This document shows positions 5,726-33,557 of a stretch of DNA of 64,000 bases, in pieces. Origin of the DNA: a virus (lineage: Duplodnaviria; Heunggongvirae; Uroviricota; Caudoviricetes); IMG/VR virus record IMGVR_UViG_3300021963_000087, positions 1 to 64,000 of that record, one strand, 5' to 3'. Every line of letters starts with the position of its first letter. Position 1 is the first letter of the stretch. The notes beneath the pieces were generated by a model, which saw only the letters and a program-made list of their open reading frames with translations, ran no database searches and was not told where the DNA came from. A program made the translations under genes and the position numbers.

Positions 5726-6536
5726 GTTATTAATTAGTAGTGACTTTTACACAGTCCAGGGAGAAGGAATTTCATCAGGTATTCCATCCTACTTTGTACG
5801 TTTAGGTATTTGTAACCTAACATGCGGCATGTCTCGTAAATTTGCTAATCAATTAGAGAAGGAACAAAAGTTAGAAGATGGTGAAATCTTTGTAGGCGAC
5901 TTGCATGCAGAAGGTAAAGCTACTTGGACTTGTGACTCTACTTCTCAGTGGTTATGGAGAGGTGAAGATAAAGATTTCCAATATTTAATTGATAGATGGA
6001 AAGAACAAGACATTTATGATGATATCATAAACGGTAATATTCATATTATTTGGACTGGTGGTGAACCTACAATTAAAGGACACCAAGAAGCAATTATTAA
6101 TTTCCTTGCATATTGGAAAGATGATAGATTTAATGCTAATTGTAGACCGTTTAACGAAATTGAAACTAATGGTACTATTGTTATTGATGAATTATTTGAT
6201 CATTTACAACAAATCAACTGCTCACCTAAATTGTCAAATTCAGGTATGACTGAAAAACAACGTATTAATCCAGAAGCAATTAAGCGTATTATGGAGCATG
6301 ATAACTATCAATTTAAGTTTGTTATTAGTACTGAAGATGATGTTAAGGAACTATTCCGTGACTTCGTAGAACCGTTTAATATACCACTTAAGAATGTAGT
6401 GTGTATGCCAGGTTTAGATGACGCAGCTAACTTTGAAGAAAGAACTCGATTTGTAATGGAGATGGCTAAGAAGTACAGATTTAGAGGTTTAACTAGATTA
6501 CACATTGCGGCTTGGAATAAAACATTAAACGTATAA
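5703..6536 (+). CDS. queE: 7-carboxy-7-deazaguanine synthase (QueE-like radical SAM)
   Basis: TVQGEGISSGIPSYFVRLGICNLTC matches the QueE N-terminus, and WTGGEPT matches the GGEP motif. The cluster motif reads CNLTCGMS (Cx3Cx2S). Confidence 0.75.
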   Translation: MSKIDPSKLLISSDFYTVQGEGISSGIPSYFVRLGICNLTCGMSRKFANQLEKEQKLEDGEIFVGDLHAEGKATWTCDSTSQWLWRGEDKDFQYLIDRWKEQDIYDDIINGNIHIIWTGGEPTIKGHQEAIINFLAYWKDDRFNANCRPFNEIETNGTIVIDELFDHLQQINCSPKLSNSGMTEKQRINPEAIKRIMEHDNYQFKFVISTEDDVKELFRDFVEPFNIPLKNVVCMPGLDDAANFEERTRFVMEMAKKYRFRGLTRLHIAAWNKTLNV

Positions 6537-6537
6537 T

Positions 6538-7155
6538 ATGAAGAAGAAATTTACAATAGGAGCTTTACACGATCCTAAAACATTAAAACCTATAAAGTAT
6601 GTCGTTACTCCAATAACAGACGCATTATTTCCAGAAGCACCTCTCTTCACAGGCACTGAAGAAGAGTGTAAAGAGTTTGTTAAGAATTATAAAGGAGAAA
6701 AGTCTAAAAATAAGCTAAGCTTACTCCAAAAGATTAAATTTATCTTAGTTGTTAAGTATTATGAGCATATCCTTCCTATCTTTAGTAATGAATTAGAAAA
6801 AGAACGTATGCAAGTTGCAGCTTTTATAATTGAAGCAAAAAATACAAAGCATTGGAAAAAGTACCAAACAGCACTACAAACTTTGAAGTTTGGTCCTAGA
6901 ACAGCACCCGATGTAACAACTATTATAAAAAGTGAAAACGGTGTTGAACGTAAGATAACTGTAAAAGGAGATTCTGTAACAATTGAAAAAGGAGCTTGTC
7001 CACAAGGACCAGTAGAAGTGGTACCAGAAGTAAAAGCAACTATTGAAGCTTTAGAGGCGGAAGCTAAGAATCCTCAACCATGGACTGGTGAGAGTAATCC
7101 AGAAGCAGCGTTTCCCTTAGAACTGACAGATAAAATTTTAAACAATGGAAAATAG
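6538..7155 (+). CDS. hypothetical protein
   Basis: ORF in array. Confidence 0.4.
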   Translation: MKKKFTIGALHDPKTLKPIKYVVTPITDALFPEAPLFTGTEEECKEFVKNYKGEKSKNKLSLLQKIKFILVVKYYEHILPIFSNELEKERMQVAAFIIEAKNTKHWKKYQTALQTLKFGPRTAPDVTTIIKSENGVERKITVKGDSVTIEKGACPQGPVEVVPEVKATIEALEAEAKNPQPWTGESNPEAAFPLELTDKILNNGK

Positions 7156-28284: not shown

Positions 28285-29553
28285 ATGAAAAAATGGGTAA
28301 GATTTCTTTCAATATTCGTTTTGTTCCTAATAGCTTATCAAGCTAACGGACAAGTCATTACCCAAACCTATACAGATCCATGCGACGGTAAAGTTTACAC
28401 AATATCCGTCCCAATTCCAAACCAAGTAGTAGTCGTTGTTATTAGAGGTAAGACTAAAACGTTTACCTATGTAGAAGCACAATCAGGTGTTATGTCTACT
28501 TGGATCACTACAATCCTATCAGAGCCATGTCCAGTATCAATAGCCGTAACCGTAGCCCAACAGGCTGCGCAAGCGGCAAGCAGTGCAGCATCCTCGGCAG
28601 CGAGTTCAGCAGCTTCATCAGCAAGCTCAAGCGCATCTTCAGCAGCATCATCCGCAGCATCAAGTGCTTCGAGCTCAGCAGCATCCTCTACCCCTGCATC
28701 AACTTCATCGGGATCATCATCTTCCTCCCAATCATCTTCATCATCTACGGAGTCATCATCATCCAGTGGATCATCGGAAAGCAGCGGAGGAGGGGAAACA
28801 AAATCAGAAAGCAAGCAAGAAAGCAGTGAGTCTAAATCTGAATCAAAAGAGGAAAAGAAATCAGAAGAGAAGAAGAAAGAAGAGGAAAAGAAAAAGAAAC
28901 AAGAAGAGCGAAAAGCTAACCCTCCAGTAGTCAAAGCAGACCTGTCAGTTATACAAGCAGGATTTGTTGTAATACCTACTCTCAATCTTAACATGTCAAA
29001 GTCTTTAAACGACGGGATGTTAAACTGGGGACTCAGCACTTCTGTCAGAGCTGATCTAAAGCAAATAGTAATAGGTGGTAACACATCAAGTGTTATCATG
29101 AAAGAAGGAAAAGTAAAAGGTGTAACATCTACAAGTGTTACTTATGTAACCGATTGGAGTAATCAATTTATTTTTTATGGTTGGAGTTATATAAGGTTAT
29201 TGAATAAAGGTGCTGTAGCTGGATTAAGTTTGAGTGGTAACGAATTACTAATAAAGGGTAACCAATTAATGTTATCTCCTTCAGTAATTGTTTTCTATAC
29301 AAGACCTATCCAAGTAACTAAAAAGCAAACAGTATCTCCAGAGTTGTATCTTATATCCTCTCCACTTATGTATGGACAGAAAGATAAAGTTGCAACTTAT
29401 GATTACAATGTATCATTCTTTACTGGAGCTGGAACGGATATAGTATTTACCAAGAAGTTTAAAGCTAACTTTAACTTTAAGGTAAACATAAGCACTAATC
29501 CAAATGTACCTTTGATGAGTGTTTTTTCAATAGGCTCAAAAATAAATTTATAG
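28285..29553 (+). CDS. secreted protein with Ser/Ala-rich and Lys/Glu-rich low-complexity tracts
   Basis: Signal peptide, (SSAAS)n tract, KE-rich tract, and a beta-rich C-terminus. Confidence 0.5.
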   Translation: MKKWVRFLSIFVLFLIAYQANGQVITQTYTDPCDGKVYTISVPIPNQVVVVVIRGKTKTFTYVEAQSGVMSTWITTILSEPCPVSIAVTVAQQAAQAASSAASSAASSAASSASSSASSAASSAASSASSSAASSTPASTSSGSSSSSQSSSSSTESSSSSGSSESSGGGETKSESKQESSESKSESKEEKKSEEKKKEEEKKKKQEERKANPPVVKADLSVIQAGFVVIPTLNLNMSKSLNDGMLNWGLSTSVRADLKQIVIGGNTSSVIMKEGKVKGVTSTSVTYVTDWSNQFIFYGWSYIRLLNKGAVAGLSLSGNELLIKGNQLMLSPSVIVFYTRPIQVTKKQTVSPELYLISSPLMYGQKDKVATYDYNVSFFTGAGTDIVFTKKFKANFNFKVNISTNPNVPLMSVFSIGSKINL

Positions 29554-29605: not shown

Positions 29606-30298
29606 GTGAAGTCAACAGAAGTTATTTTCTTGGATAAGTATTATGAGTATAGAGATTTTATAGAAGAATGTAAGAGAAAGGAGTATGGTGGTGAATTAGT
29701 ATTACACTTACATCACATACTCCCAAAACATTTAGAAACAGGGTTACCTGATAAAACCAATACAACTTACCTAAGTGTTGATGATCATATAAACGCTCAT
29801 TTACTCTTAGCTAAATGTTTTACTGAAGGTTCTTATGAAAGATTAGCAAATATAAGGTCTGCTAAATTATTATCAAAGAATTCTATAAAAGAGTTGCATT
29901 TATTAGAAGAGTTAAGTAAATTTAGTAAAGGAGTAAATAATCCATTCTTTGGTAAAAAACACACAGAGGATACTAAGGAACTACTTCGCAAAGCTACTAC
30001 GTTGAGTAGAAAGAATGTAAGCTATGAAGAGTTTTACGGAAATAGAGCTGAAGAGGAGAAACAAAAAAGAGCTGTGAAGCAGAAACAAGTTTGGAATAGT
30101 AGATCGAAAAAAGAAAAAGATACTATAAAAGAAAAAATAAAACTGGCTAAGATAAACATGGACGTTTCTGGAGGTAATAATCCAAATTCTAAGGAAGTTT
30201 ACATAGACAGTGTTAAATTTAGTTCAATCTCAGAAGCAAAAAAATATTATAATAAATCAAGATACAAACTTTTTAAAGAACATAAAATAACATACTAA
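29606..30298 (+). CDS. HNH homing endonuclease with NUMOD-like repeats
   Basis: LHLHHILPKH HNH motif and NPFFGKKHTEDTKELLRKA (NUMOD3-like). Confidence 0.65.
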   Translation: MKSTEVIFLDKYYEYRDFIEECKRKEYGGELVLHLHHILPKHLETGLPDKTNTTYLSVDDHINAHLLLAKCFTEGSYERLANIRSAKLLSKNSIKELHLLEELSKFSKGVNNPFFGKKHTEDTKELLRKATTLSRKNVSYEEFYGNRAEEEKQKRAVKQKQVWNSRSKKEKDTIKEKIKLAKINMDVSGGNNPNSKEVYIDSVKFSSISEAKKYYNKSRYKLFKEHKITY

Positions 30299-30859: not shown

Positions 30860-31244
30860 GGGGATGCCTGGAATTGATCCAGATGAGATGGGTAGTATCG
30901 CATGCAAGAGCTGGTAGAGCTCAAACAATCTATCGAACAACAAACGACGAAATGTCAACTATGACCTTCGAAGACTTAATGTCTTTCGTAGGCGCGAATG
31001 AGTACGCAGTAGCGGCTTAATTAGCAACGGGTCGGTGCACATATAACCTAGGAACAGAAGTGTTTACAAAGTGATAACACCACCTTAAAAGTGTTAAATG
31101 TTTTCTTTGTTATGTCAAAACAAAGTGGTGGATCTTGGTACTTAATCGTACGGCCCTTTACTGATCAGGTAAAACAGATCTAAGCATGTAAGAATGGTAT
31201 TATTTATACTTCTGGAGACAGGGGTTCGATTCCCCTCATCTCCA
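30860..31244 (+). ncRNA. ssrA: tmRNA (SsrA), full length; tag ends ...GANEYAVAA-stop
   Basis: 5' GGGGAUG pairs with 3' CAUCUCC including the G3-U70 wobble. T-arm is agggg-ttcgatt-cccct. Internal tag ORF reads ggc gcg aat gag tac gca gta gcg gct taa. Confidence 0.75.
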
Positions 31245-31291
31245 CTGGGTGCCTTTTTGTATCTTTTAACTATTTATAGTAAAGGTATAAA

Positions 31292-31933
31292 ATGGCAAAG
31301 CAAACATATGGTACTAGAAAGAAGTATCACTACATCTACAAAACAACTAATTTACTTAGTGGTAGGTATTACGTAGGGATGCATTCTACGGATGATTTAA
31401 ACGATGGCTATATGGGATCGGGTAAACGTCTGAAAGCTTCTATTAAAAAGCATGGAATTGAGAATCATAAATTTGAAATTCTAGAATTTTTTAATTCAAG
31501 AAAAGAGCTCGCTTTAAGAGAAGGACAATTAGTGACGATGAAAGAAGTTGCTAGTAAAGAGTGCATGAATCTTAAAGTCGGTGGTATTGGTGGATTTCCT
31601 CCAAGCGCTAAAAAAATCTTTATGGAGAAGATGAAAGATTTTGACTTCAAGAAAGTATTTGGCGAAAAATGCTCAGAGCGCAATAAAAAACTTTACGAAA
31701 GTGGAGTTTATAAAAATTTTAAGTATGATTGGACGGGTAAAAAGCACAGACCTGAATCTATTCAGAAAATGAAAGATACTAAGAAAGGTCAAGGTAAAGG
31801 AGAGATAAATTCTCAATTCGGTACTTTTTGGATTACAGACGGTAAAACAAATAAAAAAACAACTTCTAAAATACCAGAAGGATGGTATAGAGGAAGAGTT
31901 CTTAAAAATACAAATAACTGTGTGACCGAATAA
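31292..31933 (+). CDS. GIY-YIG homing endonuclease
   Basis: YIYKTTNLLSGRYYVGMHS...DGYMGSG; the GIY-YIG motifs are intact. Confidence 0.85.
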   Translation: MAKQTYGTRKKYHYIYKTTNLLSGRYYVGMHSTDDLNDGYMGSGKRLKASIKKHGIENHKFEILEFFNSRKELALREGQLVTMKEVASKECMNLKVGGIGGFPPSAKKIFMEKMKDFDFKKVFGEKCSERNKKLYESGVYKNFKYDWTGKKHRPESIQKMKDTKKGQGKGEINSQFGTFWITDGKTNKKTTSKIPEGWYRGRVLKNTNNCVTE

Positions 31934-32237
31934 ACTCTTGAGAGGGGTTAAGGTACTGCTGAGTTAGCTGAAAAGCTAAGGAGGTGGGTTTCACAGACGG
32001 ATGAGTTAAAACCACCATCGTTCTGCGTCGGCTAACGTAATGAACGCTCTGGATACGCTTAAGATCAACATTAACTGATCTCTGCAAGCGTTGCTGGTAG
32101 CCAAACCAGCCTGTTATTAACAAATGAGGACGACCATCAGGGTTATCCAAGCGCAAACATTTGGACAGTGGGTGAAAAGGGGTCCGTCCTTGGATTGTGG
32201 GTAATCAGTACTCCCACTTCAGTTATTATTTTATTAC

Positions 32238-32309
32238 CGCAAGATAGAGCAGAGGTAGCTCACTAGGCTCATAACCTAGGGGTCGAAGGTTCGAATCCTT
32301 CTCTTGCAA
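32238..32309 (+). tRNA. tRNA-Met (CAT), initiator-like
   Basis: C1-A72 mismatch, D-arm gagc-agaggta-gctc identical to E. coli tRNA-fMet, anticodon loop ctCATaa, T-loop ttcgaat, 3' GCAAC. Confidence 0.75.
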
Positions 32310-32316
32310 CAAATAT

Positions 32317-32448
32317 GCCAGAGTGGCGGAATAAACAATGCATTGCTATACACGCGTTAAAGCACTAATGCATTGAGACGTGCCCTAATCCGGAGTGGTG
32401 CAGTGACCGAAAAGGACTGCGTGAAGGTAACCAACCCTTCCTCTGGCA
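32317..32448 (+). ncRNA. tRNA-like structured RNA (132 nt; paired termini, tRNA-Leu-like 5' end, no canonical cloverleaf)
   Basis: 5' gccagag pairs with 3' ctctggc, followed by a-cc. An internal 10-bp hairpin is built from the palindrome caatgcattg, and a second hairpin is gcagt-(11 nt)-actgc. Confidence 0.35.
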
Positions 32449-32462
32449 CCTTAATATAACGA

Positions 32463-32547
32463 AGCCTTGGTGTTGGAACTGGTAGACAAGTCAGACTTAA
32501 AATCTGGTTCGCTGAAAGCGAGTGCGGGTTCGATTCCCGCCTGAGGC
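32463..32547 (+). tRNA. tRNA-Leu (TAA)
   Basis: Class II tRNA. D-arm ttggaactggtagacaa, anticodon loop ctTAAaa, long variable arm, T-arm gcggg-ttcgatt-cccgc. Confidence 0.8.
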
Positions 32548-32571
32548 ACGGGCAGTATTATGTGTATTACT

Positions 32572-32656
32572 TGGAAAGATGGCAGAGTGGTTGAATGCAC
32601 CGGTCTTGAAAACCGGCAACTGTAAAAGGTTCTGGGGTTCGAATCCCTGTCTTTCC
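32572..32656 (+). tRNA. tRNA-Ser (TGA)
   Basis: Acceptor ggaaaga/tctttcc, anticodon stem ccggt/accgg with loop ctTGAaa, long variable arm, T-loop ttcgaat. Confidence 0.8.
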
Positions 32657-32767
32657 GCAAGATGTCTATCCCCCTTCCCAACGAACAGGGCGCTTAGGGT
32701 AGGCCTTTTACCAAAGTGGATAAAACGTGTAGTAACCACAGGGATGCTAGCTCCCACTACACTCTTC

Positions 32768-32838
32768 TGCCCTTTAGTATAACGGTAGTACGGCAGTTTT
32801 TGGTACTGCTTGTTGAGGTTCGAATCCTTGAGGGGCAA
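32768..32838 (+). tRNA. tRNA-Gln (TTG)
   Basis: U1-A72 as in E. coli tRNA-Gln, U8 A9, anticodon stem gcagt/actgc with loop ttTTGgt, T-arm tgagg-ttcgaat-ccttg. Confidence 0.7.
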
Positions 32839-32851
32839 CAAAATAAAAGTT

Positions 32852-33148
32852 ATGATGGTTTATTTTTTAGTTTTTATGTTTCAATTTTTCTTTAACATCT
32901 TCAAGACGTTAGAGATTAAGTATACCTACGAGCATAAAGTAAATGCACTATTAGTAAACTCAGTTTGGATTAATGTAGTCTCATTAGGATCAACTTACTT
33001 TGCATTGGATAGATTGTTGGCAGGTGAGTGGTCTGTAATAGTTTTCTACATAGCAGGTAGCGTGGTAGGTAAGTGGTTTGCGATGACAAAAGTTAGTACC
33101 TACAAAAGAAAAATAAGACGTTTGTATTTAAAATTAAAAAGAAAATAG
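32852..33148 (+). CDS. small membrane protein
   Basis: Start placed after tRNA-Gln (the track ORF 32810 overlaps the tRNA). Three hydrophobic helices. Confidence 0.4.
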   Translation: MMVYFLVFMFQFFFNIFKTLEIKYTYEHKVNALLVNSVWINVVSLGSTYFALDRLLAGEWSVIVFYIAGSVVGKWFAMTKVSTYKRKIRRLYLKLKRK

Positions 33149-33149
33149 T

Positions 33150-33389
33150 ATGTTTATAACTTATTACATTATTTGTATTATTTACTGCTTCTATCAACTA
33201 TTCAAGAAGTACAGCCAAAGGTATAGCAATAACGCAACAGGAAACTCTCCAGAGTTGGATAGCGTAATGGTGTTAGTTATGGCTTGGGTATTAGCTCCAG
33301 TTGATGTATGTTTAACTTGGATCCGTTGGTATAAAGAAGCTGAAGCAGCTAAGAATGCAAGAAAGCGACACACCGATAGATGGATTTAA
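33150..33389 (+). CDS. small membrane protein
   Basis: Hydrophobic N-terminus. Confidence 0.35.
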   Translation: MFITYYIICIIYCFYQLFKKYSQRYSNNATGNSPELDSVMVLVMAWVLAPVDVCLTWIRWYKEAEAAKNARKRHTDRWI

Positions 33390-33392
33390 TAA

Positions 33393-33544
33393 TGTAGGGT
33401 GGTGAAAACATTTGGCAGACATACCCTCTCGTCTCGAGGGTGCAGAGAACGAAATAGAAAAGTAGTATGGGGTTGACCACCAGCTTGCAAGCATTGTGCT
33501 ACTTCTCGAATCGCTGCGTGGAGGTTCGAATCCTTCCCCTACAG
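33393..33544 (+). ncRNA. tRNA-like structured RNA (152 nt; paired termini plus canonical T-arm)
   Basis: 5' tgtaggg pairs with 3' ccctaca followed by g. T-arm ggagg-ttcgaat-ccttc resembles tRNA-Tyr/Gln, but the ~65 extra internal nt preclude a standard tRNA. Confidence 0.3.
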
Positions 33545-33557
33545 CAAATTTTAATTT

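Follow-up and report, generated by a model that had tools for sequence, protein, structure and literature searches.

The DNA analysed here, referred to as the window, is a stretch of 64,000 nucleotides (positions 1 to 64,000) of the IMG/VR virus record IMGVR_UViG_3300021963_000087 (Caudoviricetes). It has the appearance of a phage genome. All long open reading frames (ORFs) were found on the plus strand, the GC content was approximately 35%, and the nearest cultured relative was Flavobacterium phage vB_FspM_immuto, with 58% amino-acid identity across the DNA polymerase. Positions 30860–33545 contain an RNA island. Its first part consists of a transfer-messenger RNA (tmRNA) gene, a SegE-like GIY-YIG ORF, Element 0, tRNA-Met and Element 1, and its second part of tRNA-Leu(UAA), tRNA-Ser(UGA), a 109-nt spacer, tRNA-Gln, two small membrane-protein ORFs and Element 2. 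Elements 1 and 2, the main subjects of this analysis, are both genuine, conserved, structured non-coding RNAs built on the ground plan of a tRNA. The features of the island are as follows:

30860–31247, plus strand: tmRNA, phage-encoded, at the head of the island (ARAGORN, tag ANEYAVAA; Rfam, 75.3 bits)
31292–31933, plus strand: SegE-like GIY-YIG homing-endonuclease ORF, between tmRNA and Element 0
31915–32225, plus strand: Element 0, a larger manA-like RNA of 311 nt (Rfam manA, 29.4 bits)
32238–32310, plus strand: tRNA-Met (ARAGORN, Rfam)
32317–32450, plus strand: Element 1, a tRNA-shaped manA-related RNA of 134 nt (fold, Rfam manA at 23.5 bits, homologues, covariation)
32464–32549, plus strand: tRNA-Leu(UAA) (ARAGORN, Rfam)
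32573–32658, plus strand: tRNA-Ser(UGA) (ARAGORN, Rfam)
32768–32839, plus strand: tRNA-Gln (ARAGORN, Rfam)
33393–33545 including C74, plus strand: Element 2, a class-II-tRNA-derived RNA with a giant extra arm, 152 nt to G73 (RNAalifold, covariance model, covariation)

An earlier note on this DNA had described Elements 1 and 2 as tRNA-like RNAs with non-canonical interiors that are too short for group I introns, and this description held: both are tRNA-like, both belong to a tRNA cluster, and neither is an ordinary tRNA or a group I intron. ARAGORN in default, intron and relaxed modes called only tRNA-Met, tRNA-Leu, tRNA-Ser and tRNA-Gln in the region, and the Rfam tRNA model (RF00005) did not report Element 1 at all and matched Element 2 solely in the T arm (a local match of 12 bits). 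The outcome that the note had named as refuting it, a resolution into ordinary tRNAs, thus did not occur with these tools. As in canonical tRNAs, a 5-bp T-type arm adjoins the 7-bp acceptor stem of both elements, and the two helices stack directly; the elements differ from canonical tRNAs in size (134 and 152 nt compared to 70–95 nt) and in being missed by both tools. The folding energy of Element 1 corresponded to a z-score of −2.41 (2 out of 200 shuffles folded equally well) and that of Element 2 to −1.04 (27 out of 200). Folding energy being weak by itself, the case for both elements rests on the comparison with relatives, which was decisive: compensatory changes, which the note had proposed to look for in related phages, were found in 32 of 38 pairs of Element 2 and in 17 of 37 pairs of Element 1. 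The manA kinship of Element 1, Element 0 upstream of it, and the Bacteroidota homologues and aspartate-type loop of Element 2 go beyond what had been noticed before.

The anatomy of Element 2 is that of a class-II tRNA whose variable arm has become greatly enlarged. Its acceptor stem (TGTAGGG at 33393–33399 paired with CCCTACA at 33537–33543) is followed by U8 and G9 and by a 3-bp D stem with a loop containing G18 and G19, so that the elbow nucleotides (U8, A14, G18 G19 and the T loop) are retained. An anticodon-type stem of 5 bp (33424–33428 with 33436–33440) closes the loop UCGUCUC (33429–33435), in which G34, U35 and C36 are positions 33431–33433 and are flanked by C33 and U37. Between this arm and the T arm lies the extra arm of 76 nt (33442–33517), with the invariant sequence GGGUUGACCAC at 33470–33480. 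The T arm (GGAGG-TTCGAAT-CCTTC, 33520–33536) is canonical and stacked on the acceptor stem, and it is followed by G73 (33544) and C74 (33545). The paired termini and perfect T arm that the earlier note had read from the letters were found where it had placed them. The additional material (approximately 65 nt) that it had seen between acceptor and T arm is also present, as the 76-nt arm located between the anticodon-type arm and the T arm.

Eighty related IMG/VR loci were fetched via the neighbouring PD-(D/E)XK nuclease gene, and nhmmer detected Element 2 in 24 of these. RNAalifold folded 15 distinct copies into a cloverleaf with compensatory changes in 23 of 38 pairs; in most of the relatives, the D loop contains an additional hairpin. 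The covariance model R1, made from these sequences, scored Element 2 of the window at 155 bits and aligned end to end with the class-II tRNA-Leu of the window (29 bits), with acceptor, D stem, anticodon arm, base of the extra arm and T arm all in register. The suggestion that these RNAs might be tRNAs with unusual insertions thus proved apt for the anatomy of Element 2, which the model matches arm for arm with a class-II tRNA. Among the 113 relatives hit by the model, 95% of the cells were paired compared to 46–54% when the partners were slid, and the covariation score was 0.541 compared to 0.07–0.11, with G-C/A-U and U-A/C-G exchanges in the D stem. A column-pair covariation scan for pseudoknot or tertiary pairs gave mostly subgroup correlations and one additional pair extending a helix.

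Compared to the class-II tRNAs (Leu, Ser, bacterial Tyr, Sec), Element 2 shows the same 7-bp acceptor stem, U8 G9 and 5-bp anticodon stem, a 3-bp D stem with the loop AAAUUGGCAGA that is close to that of tRNA-Leu, and an extra arm that leaves before a canonical T arm. It differs in the length of this arm, which is 44–127 nt within the family (median 79) compared to roughly 10–25 nt, in the invariant sequence that the arm carries, in U37 and often C33 of the loop, in the D-loop hairpin of some members, and in being invisible to tRNA finders. Its TTCGAAT T loop and the GG in its D loop are those of a canonical tRNA, from which the lack of U33 and of a purine at position 37 sets it apart. The tRNA-like domain of tmRNA and YrlA, a bacterial Y RNA, are tRNA mimics that are processed like tRNAs, and Element 2 resembles them as a mimic with an acceptor/T-arm module. 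It does not, however, contain the G3-U70 pair of tmRNA (U3-A70 in 105 of the 113 relatives), a tag reading frame or pseudoknots, and it retains a D arm and an anticodon-type arm; the ends of YrlA lie in a Ro-binding stem and not in an acceptor stem. No Rfam match to tmRNA or YrlA was found for Element 2, and ARAGORN and Rfam instead called the true tmRNA gene at 30860–31247, 2 kb upstream.

Searches with the pattern GGTTGACCAC...GGTTCRANTCC matched at least 120 stretches in IMG/VR, among them contigs of more than 200 kb, and at least 120 stretches in a genome collection. Among the genome matches listed, 99 out of 120 contained the full core, and every titled stretch of this kind was from Bacteroidota (Pedobacter, Chitinophaga, Saprospiraceae, Cytophagaceae, Aquirufa, Flammeovirga and others). 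The remaining genome matches, from other phyla, did not contain the full core and were regarded as chance matches. Element 2 is therefore a gene common to Bacteroidota chromosomes and the tRNA arrays of Bacteroidota phages. In 71 of the same 99 bacterial loci, a divergent AsnC-like regulator gene was found 120–600 bp upstream; the best NCBIfam match of the regulator was AsnC (180 bits, under the equivalog cut-off), and in Cytophagaceae it is followed by sufB in an asnC-sufB operon. Other bacterial neighbours vary (SufB, TrmB, LacI-type). The neighbours of the phage copies (a small membrane protein, a Zn-ribbon protein and the PD-(D/E)XK nuclease) reflect lineage synteny only, and no RNA enzyme was found among the conserved ones.

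Tandem genes of the Element 2 type were observed in Flammeovirga pacifica (five copies with a spacing of 197 nt; L282, 3688–4630) and in a Saprospiraceae genome (three copies; L225, 6974–7744). A short paralogue of 114–116 nt lies just upstream of the long form in Pedobacter (L203, 1141–1254, minus strand) and in another Bacteroidota genome (L307, 1548–1663); its loop is UUGUCUC as in the long form, and a simple hairpin replaces the GGGUUGACCAC module. In the window, an ORF at 33150–33389 encoding a 79-aa membrane protein without a Pfam match stops 3 nt before Element 2. This gene is the commonest neighbour of the phage copies (39 loci), which is likely to be lineage synteny.

The family is large and apparently undescribed. 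Rfam 15, searched with gathering and E-value thresholds on the window, the phage relatives and the bacterial copies, contained no Element 2 family (best match 5S rRNA with an E-value of 2.1, i.e., noise). BLASTn against GenBank phages gave only tRNA matches over the whole region and none for Element 2 or for a member of a second subgroup, an 11-kb stretch of phage immuto that covers the tRNA region was examined and yielded no Element 2, and no published description of the Element 1 or Element 2 family was found in the literature. The csRNA DNAVirus_1850 of PMC10690425, with 27 hits in IMG/VR of which one overlaps a tRNA-Asp call, may possibly be Element 2.

Several positions of Element 2 were shown to be nearly invariant among the 113 relatives: U1-A72 in 111, G2-C71 in 109, G73 in 112, and U8 and G9 in all. 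The loop was NNGUCUM in 108 members, and U37 was likewise present in 108; of the 108 loops, 102 had C38 and 6 had A38. C33 was found in 36 members with the loop NCGUCUM (about a third), including the window copy. G73-C74 was kept in about 93% of 215 distinct copies. The strong determinants of aspartate identity are G73, G34, U35, C36 and C38, with G2-C71 as an accessory determinant (PMC9976931), and Element 2 matches this whole set. It differs from tRNA-Asp in U37, where tRNA-Asp has a purine. Its U1-A72 pair is a likeness to tRNA-Asn, on which this pair is a determinant of the tRNA-dependent amidotransferase (PMC9976931). Of 92 viral loci, 13 contained a canonical tRNA-Asp(GUC) gene together with Element 2 in the fetched stretch (L087, L132 and L147, with their large arrays, belong to these 13), which indicates that Element 2 is an addition to this tRNA and not its substitute. 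In standard tRNAs position 37 is a purine, and the ribosome depends on positions 33 and 37. Universal U37 and frequent C33 therefore argue against ordinary decoding by Element 2.

Element 1 has the terminal architecture of a tRNA around a different interior. Its P1 stem (GCCAGAG at 32317–32323 with CTCTGGC at 32441–32447) is a 7-bp acceptor-like stem directly followed by an encoded ACC (32448–32450). U8 and G9 (32324–32325) precede the D-like stem GCG (32326–32328), which encloses GGAAUAAAC and a 10-bp hairpin formed by the palindrome CAATGCATTG, present twice. A further arm, P3, ends in the tip CCGAAAAGG, and a T-like arm (GAAGG at 32423–32427, an 8-nt loop, CCUUC at 32436–32440) abuts P1 directly, so that the 7-bp stem stacked on a 5-bp hairpin forms a 12-bp minihelix as in tRNA. 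The paired termini, encoded tail and palindrome hairpin given in the earlier note were thereby recovered, as was the likeness of the 5′ end to tRNA-Leu (GCC...GGC acceptor, U8, G9, GCG-GAA and an A at the discriminator position). The lack of a canonical T loop was also confirmed, the loop being the 8-nt UAACCAAC; in addition, there is no GG in the D-like loop and no anticodon-type 7-nt loop. Element 1 starts 6 nt past tRNA-Met and ends 13 nt ahead of tRNA-Leu.

A signature search followed by a covariance model detected six independent relatives of Element 1 in phage tRNA arrays (L002/L157, L182, L087, L106, L147 and L132). An IMG/VR search with the pattern AGTGNCNGAATAAAC...GGTAANC gave four matches, all in coding-looking DNA and all due to chance. 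In the alignment of the seven sequences, which was fitted to the covariance model, 95.9% of the cells were paired compared to 37–45% with the partners slid, and an independent RNAalifold run on three of the sequences gave the same helices. The family consensus consists of the 7-bp acceptor-like stem (GCC...GGC), U8 G9, a 3-bp D-like stem (GCG/CGU) enclosing GAAUAAA and an optional hairpin, another arm tipped by CCGAAA(A)GG, and the 5-bp hairpin with loop UAACCAAC on the acceptor; the GGCACC end, with ACC encoded, is invariant in all seven. The flanking tRNAs lie 1–13 nt away in the window, L087, L106, L132 and L182, and L147 has larger spacers, of 253 and 136 nt. Upstream of Element 1 in L002 (about 6520–6610) and L182 (1–30) there is a conserved sequence, GTCCACGCACCCATCTTCT.CTTTCC, absent from the window; L002 carries the complementary AAAGTAGA upstream of it, and this sequence could represent a further small structured RNA.

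The small family to which Element 1 belongs, as a compact member, is related to the manA motif (RF01745), which is listed as a riboswitch candidate (PMC2864571). With the Rfam manA model, a 163-nt search gave 23.5 bits for Element 1 (E-value 1.6e-4) and a 3.5-kb search gave 29.4 bits for Element 0 (E-value 5.9e-5); both scores are below the gathering score of 55.2 bits. In Element 0, P1 is formed by UAACUG (31915–31920) and CAGUUA (32220–32225), the 5′ core is GUGACCGAAUAAAC-hairpin-UUAAGGUAC, and the 3′ hairpin is GUGGGUAAUCAGUACUCCCAC. Element 0 is kept in six relatives (L024, L028, L030, L031, L189 and L193), in which P1 covaries and the tmRNA directly precedes it; these gave no manA report at an E-value of 0.1 or less in a 67-kb Rfam search. 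Elements 1 and 0 share the order of parts of manA, i.e., P1, UG, a short stem, GAAUAAAC, a hairpin, GUGGUG, UG, a 3′ hairpin abutting P1, and AC(C). The signatures common to Element 1 and manA are GUG-C-GAAUAAAC, GUGGUG and UG-stem-GUAA..-stem-P1-ACC. The conserved core of manA (P1, GUGAC-UGAAUAAAC, a hairpin, UAAGG, the 3′ hairpin abutting P1 and the AC(C) tail) was found to be present in a comparison based on model alignments, the manA sequence of cyanophage S-CREM1 and the Element 1 family consensus.

The single verified manA RNA that was inspected, that of S-CREM1 (100.6 bits; PMC9964418), sits flush between tRNA-Leu and tRNA-Asn; a BLASTn search with it matched itself alone, and the presence of manA in tRNA arrays as a general rule was borne out for S-CREM1 only. 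Elements 1 and 0 thus resemble manA in the order of the core parts, in their occurrence in phages and in a location that S-CREM1 manA shares. They differ from it in being found in phages of Bacteroidota and not in cyanophages, and in Element 1, moreover, both the upstream hairpin and the central multi-hairpin domain are missing and P1 has 7 bp in place of 5. A wcaG RNA (92 bits) was observed in Synechococcus phage S-RSM4 (L328, 4004–4098), 93 nt upstream of tRNA-Gly. It coincides with the coding sequence SRSM4_042 (hypothetical protein), which is probably a mis-called ORF. The wcaG RNA of S-CREM1 likewise lies within the tRNA cluster.

In the relatives carrying Element 0, the distance between tmRNA and Element 0 is approximately 10 nt; in the window, the SegE-like ORF splits the two, and its stop codon (31931–33) falls within GAAUAAAC, a conserved motif of Element 0. 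At 29606–30298, 1 kb upstream of the SegE-like ORF, there is a second homing-endonuclease-like ORF (NUMOD3), and an ORF of 422 aa at 28285–29553 encodes a long stretch rich in Ser/Ala and, after it, a low-complexity stretch rich in Lys/Glu. A tmRNA gene at the head of an equivalent RNA island was also found in L002, L024, L028, L030 and L132. No homologue of the 109-nt spacer between tRNA-Ser and tRNA-Gln (32659–32767) was found in related loci, where only 2 nt separate these tRNAs in L002 and L182, and its fold was not significant (z-score −0.64). In phage immuto (L327, 2608–3489), a gene for QueC (7-cyano-7-deazaguanine synthase) is located just upstream of the tRNA cluster, and the phage also encodes an 86-nt 'tRNA-Cys'.

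The earlier note had also compared the two RNAs to species 1 and 2 (rnaC and rnaD) of phage T4, which are stable RNAs. This parallel holds for the context, since in both cases two extra RNAs lie at the edge of a phage tRNA cluster together with a GIY-YIG endonuclease, and rnaC has a T arm. It does not extend to homology, as none was detected in sequence or structure: R1 found nothing in T4 (L082), and Rfam gave only noise on rnaC and rnaD, with no tie to manA or any shared family. The comparison supplies no mechanism.

The best explanation overall, which we consider rather probable, is that Elements 1 and 2 are tRNA-plan RNAs excised by host tRNA processing, and that Element 2 is a non-decoding mimic or aminoacyl carrier. 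Host tRNA-processing enzymes would cut both RNAs from a polycistronic transcript, with RNase P acting at the 5′ end of each element and of the next tRNA and with 3′ trimming and the CCA-adding enzyme finishing the ends, and the products would build up as stable species with lengths of about 135 and 155 nt. Aspartyl-tRNA synthetase (AspRS) would most likely recognize, and possibly charge, Element 2, in which aspartate determinants are kept and the positions 33 and 37 needed by the ribosome are changed, a combination that suggests the non-decoding role. The extra arm would bind a partner, and the phage copies would supplement the host RNA in infection, as would the phage tmRNA and tRNAs.

Several points weigh against this explanation. 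The processing and AspRS steps are ones that we infer from sequence features. Element 2 has U1-A72 in place of the G1-C72 pair that is strict in bacterial tRNA-Asp and described as crucial (PMC9976931), the invariant U37 is left unexplained by recognition by AspRS, and Element 2 could instead be a substrate of seryl-tRNA synthetase, which its class-II body and G73 would fit. The window copy lies between protein genes and does not adjoin a tRNA, and the asnC-sufB operon means that the linkage to the AsnC-like regulator may only reflect conserved gene order. As to manA, the score of Element 1 is far under the gathering threshold, its covariance model misses both S-CREM1 manA and Element 0, and no manA was found in the tRNA clusters of three other cyanophages (S-RSM4, S-PM2 and S-RIM32).

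Element 2 might alternatively be a working specialized decoding tRNA, either as an Asp isoacceptor of an unusual kind or as a recoding tRNA whose arm recruits a dedicated factor, as in tRNA-Sec. This would agree with the full tRNA body, the elbow nucleotides, the 5-bp anticodon stem and the 7-nt loop with its GUC triplet, and with the location in tRNA arrays and in tandem copies as seen for tRNA genes; class-II tRNAs with long arms do function on ribosomes. We nevertheless regard it as unlikely, given U37 and the C33 of many members including the window copy, an arm several-fold beyond those of known tRNAs, the canonical tRNA-Asp(GUC) in the same arrays, and the rejection of Element 2 by ARAGORN and the Rfam tRNA model. 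Phage tRNAs are known to counter tRNA-targeting defences, and the location in phage tRNA arrays and a near-invariant GUCU loop mimicking tRNA-Asp would also suit decoys or spare substrates against tRNA-cleaving host defences, e.g., anticodon nucleases acting on GUN or QUN tRNAs. However, Element 2 is a conserved chromosomal gene of Bacteroidota with stable synteny, which points to a cellular function supplemented by the phage copies and makes a purely anti-defence origin less likely, and a decoy leaves both the invariant sequence of the extra arm and Element 1 unexplained. A decoy role of the phage copies therefore appears quite improbable.

For Elements 1 and 0, the match to the manA model and the present listing of manA would make them cis-acting riboswitch-type regulators. 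A regulator in a 5′ untranslated region is not what was found: Element 1 and its relatives sit between tRNA genes, mostly with spacers of 1–13 nt and no ORF downstream, S-CREM1 manA is flush between two tRNAs, and a tRNA-like end agrees better with the invariant ACC tail and with the minihelix of 7+5 bp, so that this function seems to us improbable as well. The least likely alternative, which is hardly credible, is that boundaries were mis-set on tRNAs of the ordinary or intron-containing kind or that the elements are hairpins due to chance. The single features of the elements are tRNA-like, and the intron mode of ARAGORN forces assorted calls on some relatives, but these calls disagree in isotype and intron position, no mode gives any for the elements in the window, and the interior is conserved and covarying, which is not expected of chance hairpins or spliced introns. 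A further possibility, which we put forward as speculative and doubtful, is that the Element 2 family is a dedicated non-ribosomal aminoacyl carrier of Bacteroidota and their phages and that, in parallel, manA-class RNAs including Element 1 are excised tRNA-like stable RNAs and not riboswitches. AspRS would then charge Element 2 through the conserved G73 and GUC-C38, and the tRNA-dependent amidotransferase, or a different enzyme that docks on the giant arm, would recognize it by U1-A72. The RNA, kept away from the ribosome, would serve for the synthesis or delivery of an amino acid such as asparagine, and the divergent AsnC-like regulator that is usually present would agree with a control that responds to amino acids.

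The Element 2 family comprises hundreds of strongly conserved copies and is absent from Rfam 15, cultured-phage records and the literature searched. It retains the parts of a tRNA that are recognized by enzymes, alters two loop positions that are critical for the ribosome and gains an arm of approximately 80 nt, which suggests a non-decoding use of tRNA. Genes of the Element 1 and Element 2 types are invisible to tRNA finders and may appear as blank regions or be called as small ORFs in related genomes. The manA motif has been an orphan 'riboswitch candidate' since 2010; judging from Elements 1 and 0, it may represent a tRNA-like RNA that is released from tRNA transcripts by processing.

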